Shown here piece by piece: positions 2,490 through 19,599 of a stretch of 24,771 nt of DNA; position 1 is the first letter of the stretch; every line of letters begins with the position of its first letter. Below the pieces are notes generated by a model. The model did not search any database and was not told where the DNA came from. It saw only the letters and a program-made list of their open reading frames with translations. Source of the stretch: a virus (lineage: Duplodnaviria; Heunggongvirae; Uroviricota; Caudoviricetes); IMG/VR virus record IMGVR_UViG_2547132278_000006, one strand, 5' to 3'. A program made the position numbers and the translations under genes.

Positions 2490-3593
2490 TCACACCGCCA
2501 CTGGAACCTTGATCCACGGTAGAGGGGCATAGCCAAGAATAAGAATCTCGTCCCATTTGAAATCATCCAGCTCAGACCATTCATTAGGGAATATAACGAC
2601 CGGATCTGAATGCTCTGGAGCCTGTCGTTGCATTAGCTCACACACACCTTCCATGTGGTTGTTGTACAAATGCACGTCAAAGCCAAAATGCACAAATGCA
2701 CCGGCCATGTGACCCGTAATCTTCGCGAGAAAATGAGTGAGAATGCCATAGCCAGCAATATTGAATGGCATACCAACAAAAGTGTCTACGCTACGCTGTA
2801 CGAGGCAGGAGTTGAGGATGCGTTTGGGGATTCCAAGTTCATCCAGTTCAGTTTCAGTAACACTGCCGTCCATCTCCAGATCGTATAGCATCTTGGTGTA
2901 GATAGACTCATAACCGAGGCGACTGTGTTGAAGACCAATGTCAGTTGCCATCGTTAAACGGGTTTCAAAATCAAGCTCACGACTCCACAAAGAGAAGACA
3001 AAGTGGCAAGGTGGCAGTTTCATATCCTCAAGCTCGCCTACGTTCCATGCGTTAAGCATGATGCGACGATCGGTAGGGTTCGTGCGCAGTGTATCGACAA
3101 TACGCTGTAGCTGATCGATTTCACGGGACAGCACTACGCGATCTTCACTGATACCCAGGTATCCCTCGACTTTGTACCCGCGTAAACGGAAAGTATCGAT
3201 CTTGCTCAGATATTCACTATGGCTCACGATGCGGGTATCTTCCCATCGACGCCACTGCTTACCGTAAACCGGCCCCAAATCGCCATTCTCATCGGCCCAT
3301 GCATCCCAAATCTTAACGCCGTTATCCTTGAGAAATTGGATGTTGCCCGTGCCTTTCAGATACCACTCAAGTTCGACAAGTAGTGGCTTAAGATTTACCG
3401 CCTTTCCAGAAATAAGCGGCACAGTCCCACCAGTAAGCATGTAGTAAGAGGGAACGTAGCAGGTGCTTAAAGTACCAGTGCCTGTGCGATCATCAACCTG
3501 CACGCCGCTTTTAAGCACCGTCTCAATAACTTTTGCATACGATGCGTTTGTTACCTGACCGTTCGTATGCTCACGATTCAAAAGGAGTGACAC
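2490..3593 (-). CDS. thyA: thymidylate synthase (ThyA family), long form with insertions
   Basis: DDRTGTGT, DLGPVYGKQWRRW, RRIMLNAWNVGEL, LPPCH, QRSVDTFVGMPFNIAGY, DVHLYNNH and C-terminal IKVPVAV match ThyA catalytic motifs. The ORF track starts at a GTG at 3620; GTG at 3593 has a GAGG SD 5 nt upstream and is the more likely start. Confidence 0.85.
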   Translation of the reverse strand: MSLLLNREHTNGQVTNASYAKVIETVLKSGVQVDDRTGTGTLSTCYVPSYYMLTGGTVPLISGKAVNLKPLLVELEWYLKGTGNIQFLKDNGVKIWDAWADENGDLGPVYGKQWRRWEDTRIVSHSEYLSKIDTFRLRGYKVEGYLGISEDRVVLSREIDQLQRIVDTLRTNPTDRRIMLNAWNVGELEDMKLPPCHFVFSLWSRELDFETRLTMATDIGLQHSRLGYESIYTKMLYDLEMDGSVTETELDELGIPKRILNSCLVQRSVDTFVGMPFNIAGYGILTHFLAKITGHMAGAFVHFGFDVHLYNNHMEGVCELMQRQAPEHSDPVVIFPNEWSELDDFKWDEILILGYAPLPWIKVPVAV

Positions 3594-5960: not shown

Positions 5961-8276
5961 TCAGATTTTGCAGGCTCCGTCGCACTCATCTTCTGGCTCG
6001 ACGGCTACAGCTTGCGCCAGTGGATTCTGCGGTTCGTCGTCATCACGCTTTCCTGCACCATCTCTGGTGTTGTGGTAGTAAAGCGTTTTAACTCCCATCT
6101 TGTAGGCGAGAAGCAAATCTGACAGTAGCGTCATCATTGGGACTTTATCGCCTTCAAAGCGAGAAGGGTCATAGTTGGTATTGGCCGAAATAGCCTGGTC
6201 AAAGAACTTCTGGATGATCGCCACCTTTGTCAGATAGCCGCGGTTGTCCGGCATATCCCACAGGTATTCATACTGTTCCTTCAGTTTTTCAAACTCAGGC
6301 ACGACCATCTTGACGATGCCGTCCTTAGAAGATTTCACTGACACCGGGCCACGAGGCGGTTCGATGCCGTTGGTGGAATTAGTGATCTGGCTGGAAGTCT
6401 CGCATGGCATTTGTGCCGTCAGTGTGGAGTTGCGAAGGCCGTATTTTGCAATACGTTCACGCAGTTCTTCCCACGGCATCTTTAACTCAAAGTTTGTTTC
6501 GCCACTTTCGTCTAATGAAGAACGGTAATGGTCGATCGGCAACTGACCAATTGCGTATTTGGTCTGCTCAAACCAGTCACACTCACCTTTTGCTTCGGCA
6601 AGTCGGCAGCTGGCATCAAGAAGGTAATACTGGATAGCTTCGAACGTTTCATGCACCAGTTTATTGCCAGCGGTATCAGAATAACGAACGCCATTCTTTG
6701 CCAGGTAATAAGCAAAGTTGGTTACACCAATTCCCAAGCTACGACGAGCTTTGGCAGGCACTTCGGCTGCCTCCATCGGATAGTCTTGATAATCCAGTAA
6801 CGAATCCAGTGCAGCAACGGCATAGAACGCCACCTCTTTAAGAGACTCCAGTGAACGGATGGCTCCGAGGTTAAAAGCGGATAAAGTGCATAGCGCGATC
6901 TCACCGTTCGGGTCGTCGGTAAATGCCAGTGGACGGGTGGGTAGGGTGATCTCCATACACAGGTTTGACTGGCGGACAGGTGCAAGAGCAGGAATGAAAG
7001 CGCCATGCTCATTAATATGATCGACGTTCGCAATATAAATTCGGCCCGTGGACGCTCGTTCCTGCATCAGAGATGAGAACAGCTCAATGGCAGGTACTGA
7101 CTTCTTGCGAATTGAATCATCGGCTTCGTATTTATGGTACAGCTTTTCAAACAGCTCCTGGTCTGTGAAGAAGGCTTCGTACATATCAGGCACATCATGC
7201 GGGCTGAACAGAGTGATGTTCTCGCTTCTGACGAGTCGACGGTACATTAGACGGTTACTCATGACGCCGTAATCAAGATGGCGAACGCGGTTTTCATCAA
7301 TACCACGGTTATTTTTCACCACCAGCAGACTTTCAACTTCAAGATGCCAGATCGGGTAAAACGCTGTTGCTGCGCCACCACGAACACCACCTTGCGAACA
7401 AGATTTAACAGCCGTCTGGAAATGCTTCAGGAATGGAATAACTCCGGTATGGGTGGCTTCACCATTGCGGATCTCGCTGCCCAGCGCACGGATACGGCCA
7501 AAACCAATACCAATTCCAGCACGACGTGAAACGTAGTCGATAATTGCGGCTGAAGCTGCACTAATCCCTTTCAGACTATCGCCAGACTCAATCAGCACAC
7601 AACTGGAGAACTGACGGGTTGGAGTACGGACGCCGGCCATGATTGGTGTGGGCAGAGACAGTTTGAACGTACTTGTAACGTCATAGAAACCTTTGACCAT
7701 CTCCATACGTGTTTTGCCAGCGCAGTCGTCTTCCCAATTCTGGAACAGACACATGCCTACCAGCATATAGATATGTTGCGGCCCCTCATGAATCTCACCA
7801 GTAACACGGTTTTGAACGAGGTATTTGCTTTGCAACTGCACCGTAGCTGCATAGCCAAAAAGATCGTCACGTTTCGGCTTAATGTAATTGCCGAGTTCTT
7901 CGATCTCTTCAAACGAATAATGTGTCAGCAAATCCTTGTCATAAACGCCCTTGTTAACGTTCTTGACAATGTGTTGGTAGAAGTTCGGATAGTCGTAACG
8001 ACCGAAGGCATCTTTGCGGATTTTAAAAATGTTCAGGCGGGCAGCCACCTGTGAGTAATTTGGTGCTTCTGGTGAGATCAAATCAGCGGCAGATTTAACC
8101 AAAGCCTCATGCAACTGGCTGGTGGTAATCCCATCAAAAATGCTGGCCGCAGCTCCCATTGCTACAGCGGATGCGCTTACACCACGAATGCCTTCTACGC
8201 CATACATTACGACGCGGTTGTATTTTTCTTCGGATAACGGCTCTGTTTGGCCGTTACGTTTTACGATGCTTATCAT
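5961..8276 (-). CDS. nrdA: ribonucleotide reductase class Ia large (alpha) subunit
   Basis: 771 aa; long stretches match recalled E. coli NrdA (YLVQNRVTGEI, LPTPIMAGVRTPTRQFSSCVLIE, CSQGGVRGGAAT, NRVRHLDYG, RQSNLCMEI, C-terminal ...CDGACKI). Confidence 0.95.
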   Translation of the reverse strand: MISIVKRNGQTEPLSEEKYNRVVMYGVEGIRGVSASAVAMGAAASIFDGITTSQLHEALVKSAADLISPEAPNYSQVAARLNIFKIRKDAFGRYDYPNFYQHIVKNVNKGVYDKDLLTHYSFEEIEELGNYIKPKRDDLFGYAATVQLQSKYLVQNRVTGEIHEGPQHIYMLVGMCLFQNWEDDCAGKTRMEMVKGFYDVTSTFKLSLPTPIMAGVRTPTRQFSSCVLIESGDSLKGISAASAAIIDYVSRRAGIGIGFGRIRALGSEIRNGEATHTGVIPFLKHFQTAVKSCSQGGVRGGAATAFYPIWHLEVESLLVVKNNRGIDENRVRHLDYGVMSNRLMYRRLVRSENITLFSPHDVPDMYEAFFTDQELFEKLYHKYEADDSIRKKSVPAIELFSSLMQERASTGRIYIANVDHINEHGAFIPALAPVRQSNLCMEITLPTRPLAFTDDPNGEIALCTLSAFNLGAIRSLESLKEVAFYAVAALDSLLDYQDYPMEAAEVPAKARRSLGIGVTNFAYYLAKNGVRYSDTAGNKLVHETFEAIQYYLLDASCRLAEAKGECDWFEQTKYAIGQLPIDHYRSSLDESGETNFELKMPWEELRERIAKYGLRNSTLTAQMPCETSSQITNSTNGIEPPRGPVSVKSSKDGIVKMVVPEFEKLKEQYEYLWDMPDNRGYLTKVAIIQKFFDQAISANTNYDPSRFEGDKVPMMTLLSDLLLAYKMGVKTLYYHNTRDGAGKRDDDEPQNPLAQAVAVEPEDECDGACKI

Positions 8277-8349
8277 GTATCACCAAATAAAGAGGGCCAC
8301 TAAATATAGTGGCCCATGTTAATAGATAAGCACTTACCTATCAATGAAA

Positions 8350-8919
8350 TCAAATGAGAGACTTAAGAACATCGCGCACCTGGCGGAACTGATCTGTTTG
8401 CATACCGGTATGGATGGCAGCCACCGCATCAGCCAAATGTTCGTTTTTGTTCACGAGAACATCCTGTCCAGATTGCTTACGACGCAGCCACGGTGCTTTA
8501 GGGTGTTTTTTCGTAGCCCACTGGATAATCTCTTCTTTCGATGTAGTAAGTTTATTGCCGACAAAATGCTTGATTTCGTTTGGAGTAACCTGGATCAATG
8601 GCTTATCCACACACGCAAGTACACCGATACAAATACCGTAAGACGTCTGCGAACGAGAGTTTTGGCTCCCAACCGGTAGCTCACAAAAAACCATATTTGC
8701 CTTATCAATGATTGGCTTCGCAACACGCCATATTTCACTGGCTCGGCGCAGATCGTCACTGTTCACACGAACGGTCTTTTTGTTACTCCCCGCTTTAGTC
8801 TCAACAAGAGTAAGGCCGTGAATCTCAAGTTCGTCCGTCTCAAGGTCTAAAGTGCCCACAGCAAGCCCAAAGTTGCTCATTGAGGGATCAACACCAACTA
8901 CGCTGATTTTTTTACTCAT
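8350..8919 (-). CDS. RuvC-like Holliday junction resolvase
   Basis: N-terminal ISVVGVDPSMSNFGLAV (RuvC ILGIDPG...GYGV pattern), mid FCELP (catalytic Glu region), C-terminal LADAVAAIHTG (RuvC DAADALAIAITH pattern). Confidence 0.6.
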   Translation of the reverse strand: MSKKISVVGVDPSMSNFGLAVGTLDLETDELEIHGLTLVETKAGSNKKTVRVNSDDLRRASEIWRVAKPIIDKANMVFCELPVGSQNSRSQTSYGICIGVLACVDKPLIQVTPNEIKHFVGNKLTTSKEEIIQWATKKHPKAPWLRRKQSGQDVLVNKNEHLADAVAAIHTGMQTDQFRQVRDVLKSLI

Positions 8920-8928
8920 ATAGTCTCC

Positions 8929-9672
8929 TTACCATGTTCCCCATATAGGGTTTTCCAATAATCTCGCCTCCAACGAATTGGCTACTATTGCCGTTTGCAA
9001 CGTTGGTTGGGGATAGTTTGCAAAGTCTGAATACTCATTTTCCTGCGTGACACGTTTATCTGCGGCATGTTTAACACCACTTGCTATGAAATGACGCATG
9101 ATGCCCAACAGCCTCCGACTGTCTGCACTATCGTTTGCTAAAACATGAGGGAGCTGAAGTTCGATTTCTACCATTTCTCCATACTTACCAACAAACTGTA
9201 GTTTGTCCGCACTGTACTTTTTATCCCTCCTTTGGATAAGGAAACCAGTAAAAGCATCACCTGGCGATGCCAAACTATCCACCCGCTTATTGGCAAGTCG
9301 AATAAGGTTCGTGAAAGCCATACAGTGATGCGCACCCATTCCCCCAAAGAACCCTTCGCTATTAATGTTAAGATCTTCAGTTTCATGGGATGCAATAAAC
9401 CCAGGCCCGACGTTGGGAAGATATCCCCCCTCAACAAAAGGATTAATCAGGATCGGCGCAATACATCCAGGTGGTAGTGATTTCAAACTTTGCATCAATG
9501 GCGTCTCGGATATTAGACCAAGCAACGCGGCGAATTGTACTCCGTCAATATTGTTGCTGCCCCACAGAATACGTGGAGCCGCACCATTGGAAGTATGCCC
9601 ATTGATCAGTTTTATCGACTGCATCACTGCAAATACCTGCAAAAACTGCGAGCGACTTAATTTAAACGACAT
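8929..9672 (-). CDS. hypothetical protein (247 aa)
   Basis: Intact ORF between the resolvase and Rad50-like genes; its start overlaps the rad50-like stop by 11 nt; no confident motif. Confidence 0.55.
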   Translation of the reverse strand: MSFKLSRSQFLQVFAVMQSIKLINGHTSNGAAPRILWGSNNIDGVQFAALLGLISETPLMQSLKSLPPGCIAPILINPFVEGGYLPNVGPGFIASHETEDLNINSEGFFGGMGAHHCMAFTNLIRLANKRVDSLASPGDAFTGFLIQRRDKKYSADKLQFVGKYGEMVEIELQLPHVLANDSADSRRLLGIMRHFIASGVKHAADKRVTQENEYSDFANYPQPTLQTAIVANSLEARLLENPIWGTW

Positions 9673-11578
9673 AGCTGCGCCCCTCTTTAACTTCCAGCGT
9701 AATAGTTTCCCGGAACCATGACTTCATCTCTTTATGGGAGATAATCAGCACAGTACCTCGCTCGCGAGCTTTGGACTCCAGAATACCCATGAGGCGTTCA
9801 AGACCGGCTGTATCGAGTGCATCGTCAATTTCGTCGCCGATAAACAAATCGATGTTTTTACTCGCCCGGTTGCTAACCAGATCCTGCAATGCCAAAGAAC
9901 ACGCAATGCGAACCTTCCGCTTCTCACCACCAGAGAGGGTCTGGAACGACTTACTTGAACCTTTCTTCTGCACACTAATGTTGAATTTGTCGCGATACTC
10001 ACCTTTTTTAGTGACATCCATCGTCGACCACTCAGCAGTAATATTCCCGTCAGACAACGTATTGAGATACTCGGCAGTGCGTGTATTCAGGAAAGGCGTA
10101 ACAGACGTCAAAATATGAGAACGCACCCCGGCAGGAGAGTAGACCTGACGAGCTTTTTCCAATAGCAACGTTTGTTCCTGAATAGCCTTCAACTCATCTT
10201 TTAAGGACTTGAAGGTAGACTTACTGGATACCAGGTTATCTTCGTGTCTGGCGATAAGAGCAATAAACGGATTAATCTCTTTTGATATACGATCGACCTC
10301 AGTACGAGCACGAGTCACAAGAGACTCAATAGCAACAACCTCCTTCTCACGATGACGCAAAGATGAGAGTTGTTTCGTAAGCTCTTCAATCCGGGCAATG
10401 ATAGCCGTTACATCAGGTGTCGTTTTAACAAGGGCAGACTCAATGCTTAACGCTTTCTCAAGATTCGTTTTGTGTTTAGCCATTGCCTCTGCAAGTGTCT
10501 TCGCCTGACCAATTTCCTGACGTGCTTGTTCAATGAAATTCTCCTTCACCGTTGATAGATCTTCTTCGCAGTAGGCTTTGCCACAAGTAGGGCATGGTGA
10601 TCCCACTTTAGTACCAACCTCTTCTGCTTTGGTCTTAAAATTACGCGCGCGGTTCATTGCATCAGCCTGACTATTTTCTGTAGCTTTGATGCTTGCCCGA
10701 ATATCAGTTATCGCACCACGAACTTTGAGCAACTTGGCGTCATGTTCTTCTTTTGAGGCTAACTTTTTGCGCTCACTTTCGATTGCCTTCTCGGTATCAC
10801 GGATCTGTTCGGGAAGAGTGCGGATCTCAAGTTCAACTTCCGTTAACTCAACTTCGGCACTGGCCAGCCCAGCCAGGGCATCGTCATAACGTTTAGAACG
10901 CTCTTGCTCCCATGATTCAGAGGAGGCTTTCGCTGACTCAATTTCTGACTGTGTTGCCTCAATGGTCGAGATTGTCGACTCCAATTTGGTTTTAACCACA
11001 TCCATACGTGCGGCAGCTGCATTAGCTCGCTCACGAGCAATAGCGTAGGCGCGTGTCAGTCTGTCAACGCCAGCGGCTTCTTCTACGATGGTTTTGAGGT
11101 TTTTGTCGGACATTCCAGGTAAATCTGGCATAGCTTCTTGGCTCGCATAGATGGAAGCCATGAAAACCTCTTTAGATGCACCGATCAGACGCTCGACGAA
11201 CTCTTGCGTCAGCGCATCTTTGCCTTTCGTCATATCGCCGTCTTCACCACGAACGATAAGCCGATTTTTGAACTCTTTGTGTTTACGGTGACGAATGATC
11301 GCATATCTCTTGCCTTCATCCTCGATGGTTACTGCAACACGACAGTTCTTTTCATGGTCGGTAGACAACACATCGTCACCCTTCACACCATGAGCTGTTT
11401 CGCCATAAAGACACCACATCAGGCTATTCATTAGCGTTGACTTTCCAGAGCCATTACTTGATGCGGAACTATCATCACTATTAACACCCTGAATGAGCAC
11501 TAAACCACGCTGATCTAACTCGACCTCCGCGCTGGCGATAGCCATAAAATTCTCAACCTGGAGCTTTAAAAACTTCAT
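9662..11578 (-). CDS. Rad50/SbcC-like recombination ATPase (T4 gp46-like)
   Basis: Walker A NGSGKSTLMNSL, long coiled-coil region, zinc-hook CPTCG, ABC signature LSGGEKRKV, Walker B/D-loop LFIGDEIDDALD. Confidence 0.85.
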   Translation of the reverse strand: MKFLKLQVENFMAIASAEVELDQRGLVLIQGVNSDDSSASSNGSGKSTLMNSLMWCLYGETAHGVKGDDVLSTDHEKNCRVAVTIEDEGKRYAIIRHRKHKEFKNRLIVRGEDGDMTKGKDALTQEFVERLIGASKEVFMASIYASQEAMPDLPGMSDKNLKTIVEEAAGVDRLTRAYAIARERANAAAARMDVVKTKLESTISTIEATQSEIESAKASSESWEQERSKRYDDALAGLASAEVELTEVELEIRTLPEQIRDTEKAIESERKKLASKEEHDAKLLKVRGAITDIRASIKATENSQADAMNRARNFKTKAEEVGTKVGSPCPTCGKAYCEEDLSTVKENFIEQARQEIGQAKTLAEAMAKHKTNLEKALSIESALVKTTPDVTAIIARIEELTKQLSSLRHREKEVVAIESLVTRARTEVDRISKEINPFIALIARHEDNLVSSKSTFKSLKDELKAIQEQTLLLEKARQVYSPAGVRSHILTSVTPFLNTRTAEYLNTLSDGNITAEWSTMDVTKKGEYRDKFNISVQKKGSSKSFQTLSGGEKRKVRIACSLALQDLVSNRASKNIDLFIGDEIDDALDTAGLERLMGILESKARERGTVLIISHKEMKSWFRETITLEVKEGRSYVV

Positions 11579-11807
11579 ATAACACCTTTGATACCGTGTG
11601 TTAGCTTTTGACCTTCTTTCAATCTGAACTCCGTATGCGCCGGGAAGGATCTGCGCCTCAATACGCCTTTTCTGGTTAACCTTCCAAGATAAAACGCTAC
11701 GGGATTTCCTTGTGGCGGGTAGGGCTTGTGAAACATCACCGTCTGGCCTCGTTCAAGTCTTTTCATCGTGATGGCAAAGTCTCGAAAGCTCCCATAACGA
11801 CTTTGCC

Positions 11808-12893
11808 TCACACAGCCTCCGAACTCTCCGCTTCGGTGAGGATTTCCTGACACAAAATATCCAACTTGCTTAGATCAAATCCGCCGTCAGTATCGTGGAC
11901 AATCTTGCAATAAGCAGATACCGACTCTCCCAGGCTATCGATTTTGCTGGTTTCCGTTGTGCTTGCTGTCCCTTCCATCATTGATGACTTACGGATGAAG
12001 TTGCACACGACACCTTTTGCACCCATTGTTTTGAGGATGTTCTGGTACTTAATGCCTTCTTCATCGTTCTCAATTACGGCGCGGAAACGCACGTAGTTGC
12101 CGCGAATTTGGTCATCGGCAACATAATCTTCCAGGTTAATGAATTTAGGCGCACTGGTTTCGTAGTGACTGAAACTGCCGTCCGGGTTTACGATCATGTA
12201 ACCAGCCAGAGATCCAACATCTCCCCAATTTTGATGGGTCAGCGCACCGACACTGATAACTCCAGGAATGACCTCTTTATGGTTGTGGTAATGCCCACTA
12301 AGCACGAGACGAAAGCCGATATCCTTTAACTCCTGCGCATCGATACCGACGTCAGGCATTGTTGGAATGGCTTTGTTAATGGATGTATGGATAACAACGT
12401 CATGATTATCACCTTCTACGCTCTTACGTAATGCTTTCAGATCGCAGATAAGCTCTGCATGATTGTTACGCCAGCTAATCAGGTGGACAGTCACATCACC
12501 AATTTTTATTGAGTGTGGGCGTTTGCCACATACGATTACCACGCCGATAGAACTCAGCGATGCTGCTGCGTTGGCGCTATATACTGAATCGTTGGTTTCA
12601 AGATCGTGATTACCGGCCAGCATTACTACTGTCAGATCAAGCTCGTTGATAATCCACTTGTACGTTTCAGTTACGTAATGCAAAACAGAAGGGGACACAG
12701 TTCCTCGGACGTGAAATGTATCACCGGCAACCAACATGTACTTACAACCGGCCTTCTTCATGGCGATGGCTGCTTCTTTCGTTGCTTCCAACTGTATTTC
12801 AAGTCTGGAGTTAAGCCCCTCTGCGTTCGTCGTGGAGAACGCATCCCATTTGTGGTAGTGGCAGTCAGAAATGACGCCGTATGGCAAAGTCAT
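11808..12893 (-). CDS. Mre11/SbcD-like nuclease (calcineurin-like phosphoesterase; T4 gp47-like)
   Basis: Phosphoesterase motifs ISDCHYH, AGDTFH, GNHD, GHYH in canonical order; immediately upstream of the Rad50-like gene. Confidence 0.85.
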   Translation of the reverse strand: MTLPYGVISDCHYHKWDAFSTTNAEGLNSRLEIQLEATKEAAIAMKKAGCKYMLVAGDTFHVRGTVSPSVLHYVTETYKWIINELDLTVVMLAGNHDLETNDSVYSANAAASLSSIGVVIVCGKRPHSIKIGDVTVHLISWRNNHAELICDLKALRKSVEGDNHDVVIHTSINKAIPTMPDVGIDAQELKDIGFRLVLSGHYHNHKEVIPGVISVGALTHQNWGDVGSLAGYMIVNPDGSFSHYETSAPKFINLEDYVADDQIRGNYVRFRAVIENDEEGIKYQNILKTMGAKGVVCNFIRKSSMMEGTASTTETSKIDSLGESVSAYCKIVHDTDGGFDLSKLDILCQEILTEAESSEAV

Positions 12894-13147: not shown

Positions 13148-13792
13148 TTACAGCGCGTCAGTGGGCTTTTTACGCGCTGCGTTTATGCTTATGACGCCAG
13201 CTTTTGGACGTGGGTCAACAAGGTTAAGCTCTTCTTCGCTGTGGTATTCGAGGTCGAACTCACGTTTTACATGTCTGATGTAGATTGCGGTGAGCAGGCT
13301 ATCTTTGGTCAGAAAGTGTCCGTAGGATTTGCGGATCACTTCTTCTACCTTCTCGATTTTCTCACCACCCATACAGAGATGATTAAACCGGCTGTGTTTC
13401 CGCAACATTTCGTATACTGGGCCTGAGTAAACCTTGTCTACTTTCCCAAAACGGATGATTTTCCCTGTGTCTGCGGATACGAGGCAAATCAGCTTGTCTG
13501 GTGATAAACGATCTCGCCACGTCACACCTGAACGGAGTGTGTTGAAGTAGGGAGCATCCAATCCGATGATCGGTTTACGAAATGCGAGTAATGGAACGTA
13601 CCTGATGCAACTGTTTAAATGAAAATTCACACCAGCCTTATCAAGTTTAATTCTGGTTTCGTAGATCGGGCACTTCGCCGCTATACCGCAGATGTCACAA
13701 AGCAACTTCTGCTTATTCAGGTTGGAATTTGATTCGATAGTGTAGGAGCCGTCTTCAAGACGACGAACCCAGCGCGTGCGTTTTAGATCCAT
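13148..13792 (-). CDS. hypothetical Cys-containing protein, divergent from repA and adjacent to the origin
   Basis: 214-aa ORF with clustered cysteines (LLCDICGIAAKCPIY...NSC); function unknown. Confidence 0.5.
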   Translation of the reverse strand: MDLKRTRWVRRLEDGSYTIESNSNLNKQKLLCDICGIAAKCPIYETRIKLDKAGVNFHLNSCIRYVPLLAFRKPIIGLDAPYFNTLRSGVTWRDRLSPDKLICLVSADTGKIIRFGKVDKVYSGPVYEMLRKHSRFNHLCMGGEKIEKVEEVIRKSYGHFLTKDSLLTAIYIRHVKREFDLEYHSEEELNLVDPRPKAGVISINAARKKPTDAL

Positions 13793-17398: not shown

Positions 17399-18229
17399 TT
17401 ATTTCACTGTAATGAAAGGAGTGTTAGCCCCTTGAGTCATGTACTGCGGTAACTGGCCATTCCATTTATTGATGGCTTCCAGCTCCATAACGTTCGGGTT
17501 TTGACGCAGAGCTTCACCGCGCAGACGAATGGCGTCTGCTTCTGCTTGCGCACGAGCACGGATAGCATCAGCTTCACCATTAGCCTGTTCACGTAGCATA
17601 TTCGCCTCAGCTTTACGCTGTTCAACTTCCTGCTGGCGTTGCAGAGTACGCTGGTTAGCCGTTACTTTGGCGTTGATAGATTCAATGACGGTTTTTGGGT
17701 AATCAGGCTTTCCAACCCATGACAGGCTCAGTACCTCAATACCAACCGGAGACATCTCTTTCTGAATGTCTTTCAGTGCGTTGTCCAGCAATTGCGCCTT
17801 ACCACCGTCGATAAATGAGTCAGTGGTCATACGGCTGGCCAAACGGTTTAGAGAGTCGGCAATTTTCTGACGCAGATCTGATTCGGTGATATCGTCTACG
17901 CCTTTGCGATAGGTCTGGAACACCGTCGTTACCTTGTCACGATTAACCAGATACGCAACGCCAATTTTGTGACCAATAGCAGTACCGTCACTCATCTGGA
18001 ATGTGAACGGCTCGTCGTAGGTCTTCATTTGTTTGAAGGTCGGGAATACGTAAAGTTCGGTGTTAAGACCTGTCCATTGGCGACCAACGCCAACCACTTC
18101 ACCGATCCCTTTGTCTTCACCTAATTTGTTTACTTTGATGCCAACGTATCCAGGCTCCACGCGATCACAGCCAGTAAGACCCATTGTGCAAATAGCCGCC
18201 AGAGCAACTGCAAGTAAACCTTTCTTCAT
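17399..18229 (-). CDS. SPFH/band-7 (prohibitin/HflC-like) lipoprotein
   Basis: Signal peptide with lipobox MKKGLLAVALAAICTMGLTGC; SPFH-like core and an Ala/Glu/Arg/Gln-rich coiled-coil tail (QRQQEVEQRKAEANMLREQANGEADAIRARAQAEADAIRLRGEAL) typical of HflK/C-type proteins. Confidence 0.75.
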   Translation of the reverse strand: MKKGLLAVALAAICTMGLTGCDRVEPGYVGIKVNKLGEDKGIGEVVGVGRQWTGLNTELYVFPTFKQMKTYDEPFTFQMSDGTAIGHKIGVAYLVNRDKVTTVFQTYRKGVDDITESDLRQKIADSLNRLASRMTTDSFIDGGKAQLLDNALKDIQKEMSPVGIEVLSLSWVGKPDYPKTVIESINAKVTANQRTLQRQQEVEQRKAEANMLREQANGEADAIRARAQAEADAIRLRGEALRQNPNVMELEAINKWNGQLPQYMTQGANTPFITVK

Positions 18230-18525: not shown

Positions 18526-19599
18526 TTACTCTTCTACTGACTCGGTGGGGTTGTCTTTTGCTCTTCGGTCGTCGATTGCCTGCAAAGCCGCAATGATTTC
18601 AGCCAGTGGCTTCTCCCGATACATCTCGACGATCTGCGATTTGGTGTATTTCTTGTCACCAATTTCAACTCGCCCGCTGGCGTTCTTTGGCAGGTATCCT
18701 TCTTCCAGCATGTACTCGACGAGCGATTCGATAACGTCGAGGCCACGAGTAGGATCGAAGTAGAATTTCCAGGTGCATTTGCCATACGGTGGTGCAACTT
18801 TGTTTTTGATGCATTCTGCGCCTACGTCCTGGCCGATCTTCTCTTTACCATCCTTCATCACCGATGCACCAAGACGGATACGTACAGAAGCGTAGAACTT
18901 CGGTGAATCTCCACCTGGCGACGTAGTAGGGTCGCCAAACATTACACCGATTTTTGTGCGAACCTGATTCAAGAAGATGATGCAGGCGTTGTATTTGCGT
19001 GCCCACAAAGCCAGAGTAGGGAAGTTCGCACTTGTCGCACGAGCCAGTGCCGTATTGTCGTTCATGTTTAGCTGATCTTTGTCTTTGGCAGTGCCTTCAG
19101 CCATCTTTTCGAACTTCTCGGCTTTGGAGTTCGGAACCATAGACGCAAGTGAGTCAGCCACGATACAGATAGGTGCTGATTCAGGGATAAGCTCTTCATC
19201 ACGTACCAATTTAAGTATTGTGCCGATCAACTCTACAGAGTCTTCGAAGGTGTCAGGCTGCTTGTATACCCACTGACCGTCATCCTCATCTGCGTTCAGG
19301 CCATTGGCTACAGCCAGGCCAACGTCAAAACTGTTTTCATGATCGAGGAATACCGCCAGACCATCTTGTTTTTGAGCGGAGATCATCGCTGCTGTTGCAA
19401 GGAACGTTTTCCCTGCACTTGGAGGACCGAATACTTCGACGATACGACCACATGGGAAGCCGCCATCGTAACGACCAGAAATAGCTTTGTTTAACGGTGG
19501 AAAGCCTGTATCAATCCAATGAGTTACTTTCTGAATTTCGTCGTTGCTACCGATTTTCTTTTTCAGAGCAAGTGCCAGTGCGGATTTTCCTTTTGCCAT
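18526..19599 (-). CDS. recA: RecA-family recombinase
   Basis: Walker A GRIVEVFGPPSAGKTFLA; FLNQVRTKIGVMFGDPTTSPGGDSPKFYASVRIRLG is near-identical in pattern to recalled E. coli RecA ([36 protein letters not shown]). Confidence 0.9.
   Translation of the reverse strand: MAKGKSALALALKKKIGSNDEIQKVTHWIDTGFPPLNKAISGRYDGGFPCGRIVEVFGPPSAGKTFLATAAMISAQKQDGLAVFLDHENSFDVGLAVANGLNADEDDGQWVYKQPDTFEDSVELIGTILKLVRDEELIPESAPICIVADSLASMVPNSKAEKFEKMAEGTAKDKDQLNMNDNTALARATSANFPTLALWARKYNACIIFLNQVRTKIGVMFGDPTTSPGGDSPKFYASVRIRLGASVMKDGKEKIGQDVGAECIKNKVAPPYGKCTWKFYFDPTRGLDVIESLVEYMLEEGYLPKNASGRVEIGDKKYTKSQIVEMYREKPLAEIIAALQAIDDRRAKDNPTESVEE

Follow-up and report, generated by a model that had tools for sequence, protein, structure and literature searches.

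What role is played by the conserved protein of 247 amino acids (aa), here termed X, which is encoded between a RuvC-like resolvase gene and a Rad50/Mre11-type gene pair in an SSU5-type phage-plasmid? The gene lies in the IMG/VR record IMGVR_UViG_2547132278_000006 (Caudoviricetes), the 24,771 nucleotides (nt) of which are referred to below as the window, and this stretch derives from a close relative of Escherichia phage Cyrano, an SSU5-like phage-plasmid of E. coli LF82. X is tentatively read here as an adaptor or regulator without catalytic activity, which would serve the T4-like recombination module of this element and dock to a partner through a short C-terminal tail. An invariant W-x-x-W tail behind a variable linker is its most informative feature and had been missed in the annotation with which this study began (the original prediction). 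While the function of X is still unassigned, its architecture is defined here and a tryptophan motif that recurs at the C-terminus is described, and the adaptor hypothesis is built on these.

All window coordinates given in this study refer to features on the minus strand. The X open reading frame (ORF; 8929..9672) begins with an ATG (9672-9670) which falls within the final codons of the 638-aa sbcC ORF, and the resultant 11-nt overlap of start and stop regions (9662..9672; ATGTCGTTTAA) is read as translational coupling. A Shine-Dalgarno-like GAGGGG (9680..9685), read from the sequence inside sbcC, precedes this ATG by 7 nt. Nine nt, GGAGACTAT, separate the TAA stop codon of X (8931-8929) from the ATG of the 189-aa RuvC-like ORF, whose ribosome-binding site, AAGGAG, spans the X stop codon. 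The 247-aa ORF itself, the 11-nt overlap with the rad50-like gene and the 9-nt gap to the resolvase gene, all of which had been proposed previously, were thus recovered directly from the sequence, and the labels given to the neighbouring genes agree with Pfam and PHROG profile matches to SbcC, SbcD and RuvC. The same 11-nt overlap is present in SSU5 and in the loci of two homologues (P0059 and P0065) which are only 24-26% identical to X. No convincing promoter or terminator was found on the coding strand from sbcD to ruvC. A hairpin terminator with a 9-bp stem, including 6 GC pairs, and a T-rich tail follows ruvC (8294..8315), and represents the end of the sbcD-orf63-sbcC-X-ruvC unit, separating it from the nucleotide-metabolism genes, of which nrdA is the next. 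A promoter-like site (8344-8316) is located beside this strong hairpin, between ruvC and nrdA. The conserved overlap, the Shine-Dalgarno sequence inside sbcC, the lack of an internal promoter or terminator and the terminator after ruvC bear out the prediction that X is co-expressed with the recombination genes, and both this co-expression and the translational coupling to sbcC are well supported. X is a real gene rather than a chance ORF, as homologues down to 24% identity retain its length, position and conserved columns, and as it shows both an end-to-end match to a PHROG family and a confidently predicted core.

X is 100% identical to CYRAN_67 of Cyrano, with SSU5_076 as its counterpart in SSU5, and residues 1-247 align to positions 1-248 of the 248-position profile of PHROG 2117, a family of unknown function (E 2e-127). 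Homologues are found in 12 phage records and 759 PLSDB plasmids, the latter from Klebsiella, Escherichia, Enterobacter, Yersinia, Salmonella and other Enterobacterales; S. Typhi CT18 pHCM2 is among the carriers, as are plasmids of Y. pestis. An exhaustive profile search against 1.84 billion representative proteins yielded just 25 matches to the X family, and provides no link from it to any annotated protein. The most distant full-length homologues, P0059, P0065 and P0066, share 24-26% identity with X; P0059 and P0065 match PHROG 2117 too, and their loci show the gene order sbcD-sbcC-X-ruvC-nrdA. All X homologues whose loci were examined are placed between sbcC and ruvC, and the sbcC stop is invariably the starting point of an ORF of 232-248 aa in the 73 IMG/VR loci selected via their SbcC (59-100% identity). 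X is lineage-restricted, occurring in SSU5-type elements, and its link to sbcC is as old as the X family itself. When Cyrano is compared with the Klebsiella, Yersinia and Salmonella lineages, X is 42-47% identical while the adjacent, overlapping SbcC is 81-83% identical. One outlier plasmid match (H42) was rejected as an informative homologue, as it represents a deletion fusion of SbcD and X in a degraded element; in the E. coli plasmid CP057440 (1784-2323 and 2299-3075), a degraded 52-kb derivative, a deletion has left the N-terminus of SbcD fused to the second, C-terminal half of X. CP057440 and some intact IMG/VR elements also carry a 258-aa ORF inserted between X and ruvC and overlapping the end of X, which is taken to be an HNH-type homing endonuclease gene.

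Pfam provides no family for X at E values up to 1, and none that is common to 21 family members at E values up to 10. There was likewise no match in NCBIfam or among the PDB sequences (phmmer and family profile), none of the PADLOC defence models matched X at E values up to 0.1, and no paper on the gene was found in the literature library searched. Together with the negative Foldseek searches described below, these results are in line with the original prediction that X contains no placeable motif, and its status as an unknown protein stands, as no match to a characterised phage accessory protein turned up.

Structure prediction, which had been suggested as a means of placing X, gave a confident core with no fold match in the PDB. 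A first AlphaFold2 run with 18 close homologues gave a mean predicted local distance difference test (pLDDT) score of 60 and a predicted template modelling (pTM) score of 0.66, while a second run with 21 sequences, including P0050 and three distant homologues, raised these to 77 and 0.76, respectively. Block pLDDT values of the second model are 79-95 across residues 1-200 (about 86 for the core), and fall below 50 for residues 203-234 and 241-247, suggesting that the linker and tail are not packed on the core. X can thus be divided into a conserved alpha/beta core (residues 1-202; 9067..9672), delimited by the model and the conservation profile, a variable, mildly acidic linker (residues 203-232; 8977..9066), predicted to be disordered on the basis of pLDDT, conservation and indels in the alignment, and a conserved C-terminal peptide, SLEARLLENPIWGTW, proposed to be a docking motif (residues 233-247; 8932..8976). 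The modelled core comprises four long helices (residues 7-27, 44-55, 114-134 and 183-205) and about nine strands, with a beta-beta-beta-alpha element at residues 143-205. Foldseek found no match to the second model in the PDB (best E 0.11, all template modelling (TM) scores <0.2), nor to the first model (pLDDT 60) in the PDB and BFVD.

Conservation along X, given as the mean majority fraction, is 0.81 for residues 1-27, which include the N-terminal helix, and 0.78 for residues 71-95 (APILINPF..GYLP..GPGF), these being the most conserved parts of the core. It drops to 0.40 in the linker (residues 203-232), where indels occur in the family alignment and both sequence and length vary, and rises to 0.77 in the tail peptide (residues 233-247). 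Two Gly-rich segments had been pointed out in the original prediction and both are present. PNVGPGF (residues 86-92) falls within the conserved block, and its P86 and G91 are conserved in at least 90% of sequences. The other, NSEGFFGGMGAHHC (residues 103-116), is specific to the Cyrano lineage and is not conserved in the family, which has the consensus ENALFGAMEAHIS at this location. Among 21 sequences, the conserved core columns consist of hydrophobic residues, Pro/Gly, Gln, Asn, Tyr and one Arg, with no conserved Asp, Glu, His, Lys or Cys, and an enzymatic role is therefore unlikely. The family is mildly to strongly acidic (isoelectric point (pI) 4.4-6.6; net charge -1 to -18), while the Cyrano X core alone has a pI of 8.6; the varying charge and the pI of the core argue against a conserved DNA-binding surface as well as against a DNA mimic.

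The tail of the X family follows the pattern ...E-x-P-x-W-[G/A]-[T/S]-W-COOH, with X itself ending in WGTW. E240, W244 and W247 are invariant even in homologues with 24% identity, while P242 and T246 are at least 90% conserved, and the ORF following sbcC ends in W[GA][TSM][WF] in all 73 IMG/VR loci. Such a layout, with an invariant tail following a linker predicted to be disordered, is typical of tethered short linear motifs. Exactly two copies of W[GA][ST]W are present among the 28,775 residues of the Cyrano proteome proxy, each forming the final four residues of a protein, namely X and CYRAN_34, where 3.5e-4 such C-terminal tails would be expected per 126 genes. SSU5 similarly contains exactly two tail-bearing genes, SSU5_042 and SSU5_076. 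The ribosome-binding site of ruvC in the window falls after the X stop, outside the tail. A Phi-G-x-W tail is proposed here, defined as [WFILMY]-[GA/x]-[GST]-W at the extreme C-terminus, optionally followed by A or S, preceded by a variable segment and conserved within its own protein family; the X tail conforms to this pattern. Two known classes of C-terminal tails were considered. Beta-clamp-binding motifs take the form Q-phi-x-[L/M]-[F/L] or Q-phi-x-[L/M]-x-[F/L]. Binding to the clamp becomes weaker when Trp occupies the hydrophobic positions (PMC11139829). At motif level, the X tail was rejected as a clamp-binding sequence, as P-I-W-G-T-W is devoid of Gln and has Thr, Ser or Gly where Leu or Met is needed. 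Neither is it an acidic tail of the single-stranded DNA-binding protein (SSB) type, and the phage gp32-like SSBs bear T4-like tails of their own (...DDLLRELDSL and ...LDELDDLLED).

The second tail-bearing protein of Cyrano, CYRAN_34 (OV696614, 34791-35573), is a 260-aa orphan of the phrog_4248 family (260-264 aa) which ends in WGSW and is encoded directly after the primase gene, while SSU5_042 (NC_018843, 38241-39035) belongs to the same family. Its members end in WATW, WG[ST]W or FGSW in 30 of 30 cluster representatives and 80 of 80 IMG/VR homologues. The cores of X and CYRAN_34 are unrelated (hhalign probability 2.5%). At the G/A position of the tail X and CYRAN_34 agree in 27 of 30 contigs, the remaining three being discordant mosaics. 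These mosaics indicate that the concordance largely reflects shared ancestry and that both variants are compatible, and it was not counted as co-evolution of the two tails.

Similar tails are also found beyond the SSU5-type elements. Pseudomonas phage nickie, which shows synteny with SSU5-type elements, encodes the closest SbcC of non-enterobacterial origin in the phage collection (38% identity). Between its sbcC and ruvC genes lie two genes, CNR34_00074 and CNR34_00075, the products of which end in ...TDFGGWA and ...YDIGGWA, respectively, and the latter tail is conserved across the CNR34_00075 family. A local resemblance between CNR34_00075 and X (QFL...MQS near the N-terminus and ...IP..FA... 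in the middle) was lost in a profile-profile comparison with an 8-sequence alignment. Eleven plus-strand ORFs of nickie end in [hydrophobic]-[G/A]-[GSTA]-[W/F]-(A/S), where 0.32 would be expected from the internal motif frequency, while on the largely non-coding strand only one of 427 ORFs bears such a tail. One of the 11 tails reads AWGTW, as in X. The tail-bearing genes, almost all of them small orphans, are scattered over the early region (MG018927: 66459-67154, 67151-68029, 82645-83136, 85755-86036, 86033-86317, 86314-86712, 88525-88716, 93121-93513, 93510-93926 and 99970-100236, among others), so that at sequence level the tails look like a genome-wide C-terminal tag. The GGWA endings might be a by-product of a Shine-Dalgarno sequence combined with an ATGA overlap. 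This explanation is insufficient, as only 6 of 52 ATGA-overlapping ORF ends encode G-x-W-A/S, others including one SDWA and two GAFA, as some of the tails occur without any gene overlap, and as the CNR34_00075 family retains its tail.

The SSU5-like phage-plasmid NZ_CP131894 of Acinetobacter baumannii, with an SbcC of 41% identity, provides a third lineage. Its gene between recA and sbcD ends in ...VLGSW (2702-3163), the gene after sbcC in ...RGIESW (7034-7870) and the gene after ruvC in ...NGIVEW (8678-9058). By hhalign, the core of the protein encoded after sbcC is unrelated to X and to CNR34_00075, and comparison of X with the proteins encoded after sbcC in nickie, in phage K and in this Acinetobacter plasmid gives probabilities below 1% throughout. 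In three divergent lineages, as far as profile comparison can tell, the slot after sbcC is filled by a non-homologous protein of ~230-290 aa which ends in Phi-x-x-W.

X is transcribed in one unit with SbcD, the 63-aa ORF, SbcC and the RuvC-like resolvase, and is translated in step with SbcC by means of the 11-nt stop/start overlap. Under the adaptor reading, its core would bind or modulate the neighbouring machinery, most plausibly the SbcCD nuclease, because the coupling is conserved and the slot constant. The tethered tail may plug into a hydrophobic pocket of a partner which is also used by other tail-bearing phage proteins, and X could thereby link the processing of ends by SbcCD with the step that follows in recombination-dependent replication, or gate the nuclease. 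As to the putative receptor of the tail, the phage SbcC or SbcD and another phage replication or recombination protein are judged to be equally good candidates, each being plausible while short of probable. A host factor is judged considerably less likely, as is, to the same degree, the possibility that the tail is not a docking motif at all. A broader and somewhat unlikely proposal is that the Phi-G-x-W tail is a previously undescribed motif by which fast-evolving, unrelated accessory proteins are plugged into one conserved replication or recombination hub, which in the boldest version would be Rad50/Mre11 itself. The motif may be used in this way by the SSU5-type (including pHCM2 and the Y. 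pestis pMT1 relatives), nickie-like and Acinetobacter elements, with the post-sbcC protein as its constant member.

Several observations weigh against the adaptor reading. Any interaction of X with a partner is putative and its receptor is only a candidate, while the faster evolution of X relative to SbcC (~45% versus ~82% identity) is as typical of host-directed proteins as it is of adaptors. In the T4 literature retrieved, gp46/gp47 are partnered by UvsY and gp32, and a third subunit dedicated to them is not described. In the Herelleviridae the gene after sbcC codes for an anti-sigma factor, so that position alone is weak evidence, and as the second tail protein is encoded beside the primase gene and the nickie tails occur mostly on small orphans, the hub need not be SbcCD. 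The G/A concordance between X and CYRAN_34 adds little, given its mostly ancestral origin and the 3 of 30 contigs that disagree, and the tail might serve as a signal for degradation or localisation instead.

Anti-host genes are also placed in phage recombination modules, as exemplified by gam in lambda and abc1/abc2 in P22. X might accordingly be a counter-host inhibitor or decoy, directed against a nuclease or defence system of the host such as RecBCD or its SbcCD, which protects linear intermediates of phage-plasmid replication or recombination. Its rapid divergence relative to its neighbours, the acidity of most family members (pI 4.4-6.2), the core devoid of a catalytic signature and the narrow distribution of the family (25 representatives among 1.84 billion proteins) would all suit such a role, and TelN is a documented phage inhibitor of bacterial Mre11-Rad50 (PMC12624138). 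The net charge is, however, unconserved (-1 to -18) and the Cyrano core has a pI of 8.6, contrary to what would be expected of a DNA mimic, and X matches no PADLOC model and no Pfam or PHROG family of known function, including any Gam or Abc2 models held there. For the anti-RecBCD types represented by lambda Gam, P22 Abc2 and T7 gp5.9, there was no Pfam, PHROG or PDB-sequence match and no conserved acidic surface in X. The strict coupling to the phage's own SbcC and a tail common to a replication-module protein better fit an internal role, and a counter-host function is considered unlikely. Less likely still, the tail may be a generic tag, such as a protease degron, a membrane-interface anchor or a localisation signal, in which case its adjacency to sbcC would be uninformative on the function of X. 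The occurrence of the tail on 11 mostly small, unrelated and scattered nickie orphans points in this direction, as do the stomatin-like and small membrane protein genes beside the recombinase gene and the tolerance of zero to one extra residues after the Trp (WGTW versus GGWA), which indicates that the free carboxylate is not precisely positioned. By contrast, the SSU5-type genomes encode just two tail proteins, both in DNA-metabolism modules, the gene directly after sbcC bears the tail in three divergent lineages, and the segments which precede the nickie tails are polar or charged rather than amphipathic.

It is also conceivable, if improbable, that the partner of X is the RuvC-like resolvase rather than SbcCD, with X serving as a junction-targeting or loading factor in the manner of RuvA for RuvC/RuvB. 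The gap between X and ruvC is only 9 nt, the ruvC ribosome-binding site spans the X stop, and the two genes occur together in every SSU5-type locus examined. The conserved overlap is nevertheless with sbcC and not ruvC, and nickie, several IMG/VR contigs and the degraded plasmid tolerate homing or HNH endonuclease genes in the interval that separates the X slot from ruvC. The X family is, moreover, acidic, and no Pfam family, RuvA domains included, was detected in X. Structures of RuvA, Rad52 and Red-beta are held in the PDB, and the RuvA OB and helix-hairpin-helix domains were found in X neither by Pfam nor as a Foldseek PDB match. The least probable of the alternatives, and a very remote one, is that X is a DNA-binding mediator or a single-strand annealing protein (ERF/Rad52-like) acting on the single-stranded DNA made by SbcCD. 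Several ERF proteins figure among the weak BFVD matches of the first model (E 0.07-0.3), and X has the beta-beta-beta-alpha element at residues 143-205. These matches have TM-scores of about 0.17 or less and stem from the pLDDT 60 model, while for the better model (pLDDT 77) the PDB yields no match, and hence none to an annealing-protein structure there, so that the ERF lead was rejected. There is, furthermore, no ERF, RecT or Rad52 match in Pfam or PHROG, the family is acidic and devoid of a conserved basic surface, and the element already encodes UvsX, UvsY and gp32 homologues.

The module in which the putative adaptor resides begins with sbcD (11808..12893), which codes for a 361-aa Mre11-like nuclease (PF00149, Metallophos; phrog_100). 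It is followed by a small ORF of 63 aa from an internal ATG (11575..11766; phrog_37951), annotated as SSU5_074 in SSU5, which fills the gap between sbcD and sbcC, with its stop overlapping the start of sbcC. Between the sbcD and sbcC homologues of Staphylococcus phage K there is likewise a small gene, of 125 aa. The 638-aa SbcC/Rad50-like ATPase (9662..11578; PF13476, AAA_23; PF02463, SMC_N; phrog_77, E 4.5e-165) is encoded immediately upstream of X and overlaps it, while the 189-aa RuvC-like Holliday-junction resolvase (8350..8919; phrog_159, E 3e-57) lies 9 nt downstream of X. Upstream of sbcD the window encodes a conserved 214-aa protein (13148-13792; phrog_2105), annotated in Cyrano as an ASCH RNA-binding domain protein, which precedes sbcD in all SSU5-type loci seen, with a gap of ~250 nt. 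The 357-aa UvsX/RecA-like recombinase is encoded at 18526-19599, and directly downstream of its gene come those for a stomatin-like lipoprotein (17399-18229; phrog_200) and a small membrane protein, which hints that part of the module is membrane-associated. As this recombinase is uninterrupted at 357 aa, unlike the RecA of Cyrano, the window represents a relative of Cyrano and not Cyrano itself. In Cyrano RecA (OV696614, 55065-57404), 422 aa are inserted directly behind the Walker A motif GPPSAGK. This insertion opens with a Cys and contains a LAGLIDADG-like string, suggesting that it is an intein; the recA product of the Acinetobacter plasmid is likewise ~730 aa in length. The T4-like set of the element comprises a UvsY-like mediator, a gp32-like SSB, a 5'-3' exonuclease, the UvsX-like recombinase, SbcD/SbcC, RuvC and UvsW, and DnaE, epsilon, a DnaB-like helicase, a primase and a ligase are further encoded.

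X is a conserved unknown of a clinically widespread plasmid group, with members in Klebsiella, E. coli, Salmonella Typhi and Yersinia pestis, and the tail motif could aid the annotation of further orphan genes in SSU5-, nickie- and Acinetobacter-type elements. Bacterial and phage Mre11-Rad50 is generally seen as a two-subunit complex, to which eukaryotes add a third subunit and short peptide motifs. If the adaptor reading is true, a co-translated, non-catalytic protein with a docking peptide would provide a simple prokaryotic model of Mre11-Rad50 control, and in the boldest version X would be the first case of a dedicated third subunit, or of a regulator acting through a peptide motif, for the Mre11-Rad50 nuclease of a bacterial virus.

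Among phages, the overall toolkit of the element resembles that of T4, in which gp46/gp47 act with UvsX, UvsY and gp32 (reviewed in PMC3016280), and X sits in the counterpart of the gp46/gp47 unit. A difference from T4 is that the SbcC of the window has its closer relatives in phage nickie and the Herelleviridae, and as no X homologue was found outside the SSU5-type elements, T4-type phages appear to lack one. The phrog_1070 anti-sigma factor of Staphylococcus phage K, which we take to be of the G1 ORF67 type, occupies the same post-sbcC slot and shows a stop/start overlap with the Rad50-like gene. It is nevertheless not homologous to X (hhalign probability 0.3%), which matches only phrog_2117. 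CNR34_00074 and CNR34_00075 of nickie and WP_000192217 of the Acinetobacter plasmid p2008C02-166-1 are similar to X in organisation, as they fill the sbcC-ruvC slot, are 231-292 aa in length and end in Phi-G/x-x-W(A). They differ in that no homology was detected between their cores and X, or among these cores, and in that nickie contains two genes in this slot. The X tail further resembles the hub-docking tails represented by the beta-clamp motif, the tip of E. coli SSB and the T4 gp32 tail in being short, hydrophobic or aromatic, C-terminal, located behind a linker and common to several DNA-metabolism proteins that are otherwise unrelated, while it departs from the clamp consensus and is not acidic like the SSB and gp32 tails.

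In eukaryotes, Nbs1/Xrs2 is the third subunit of Mre11-Rad50 and combines a folded part with a flexible region bearing docking motifs near the C-terminus. X, as a proposed non-catalytic Mre11-Rad50 accessory, would have a comparable layout of a folded part and a flexible, motif-bearing C-terminal region. It nonetheless shares neither sequence nor fold similarity with Nbs1/Xrs2, differs in size and has no FHA or BRCT domains (Pfam), and Nbs1/Xrs2 is described as confined to eukaryotes in PMC12343972. A second parallel is provided by iDDR (TRF2), MIN (Taz1) and BAT (Rif2), motifs of unrelated proteins which act on one RAD50 surface and regulate the nuclease (PMC12624138). These motifs are eukaryotic and telomeric, and the likeness of the Phi-G-x-W tail to them is one of logic, in that unrelated phage proteins similarly appear to share one tail next to a Rad50 homologue. 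As control of RAD50 by peptide motifs is established in eukaryotes, the proposed docking tail of X has a precedent.

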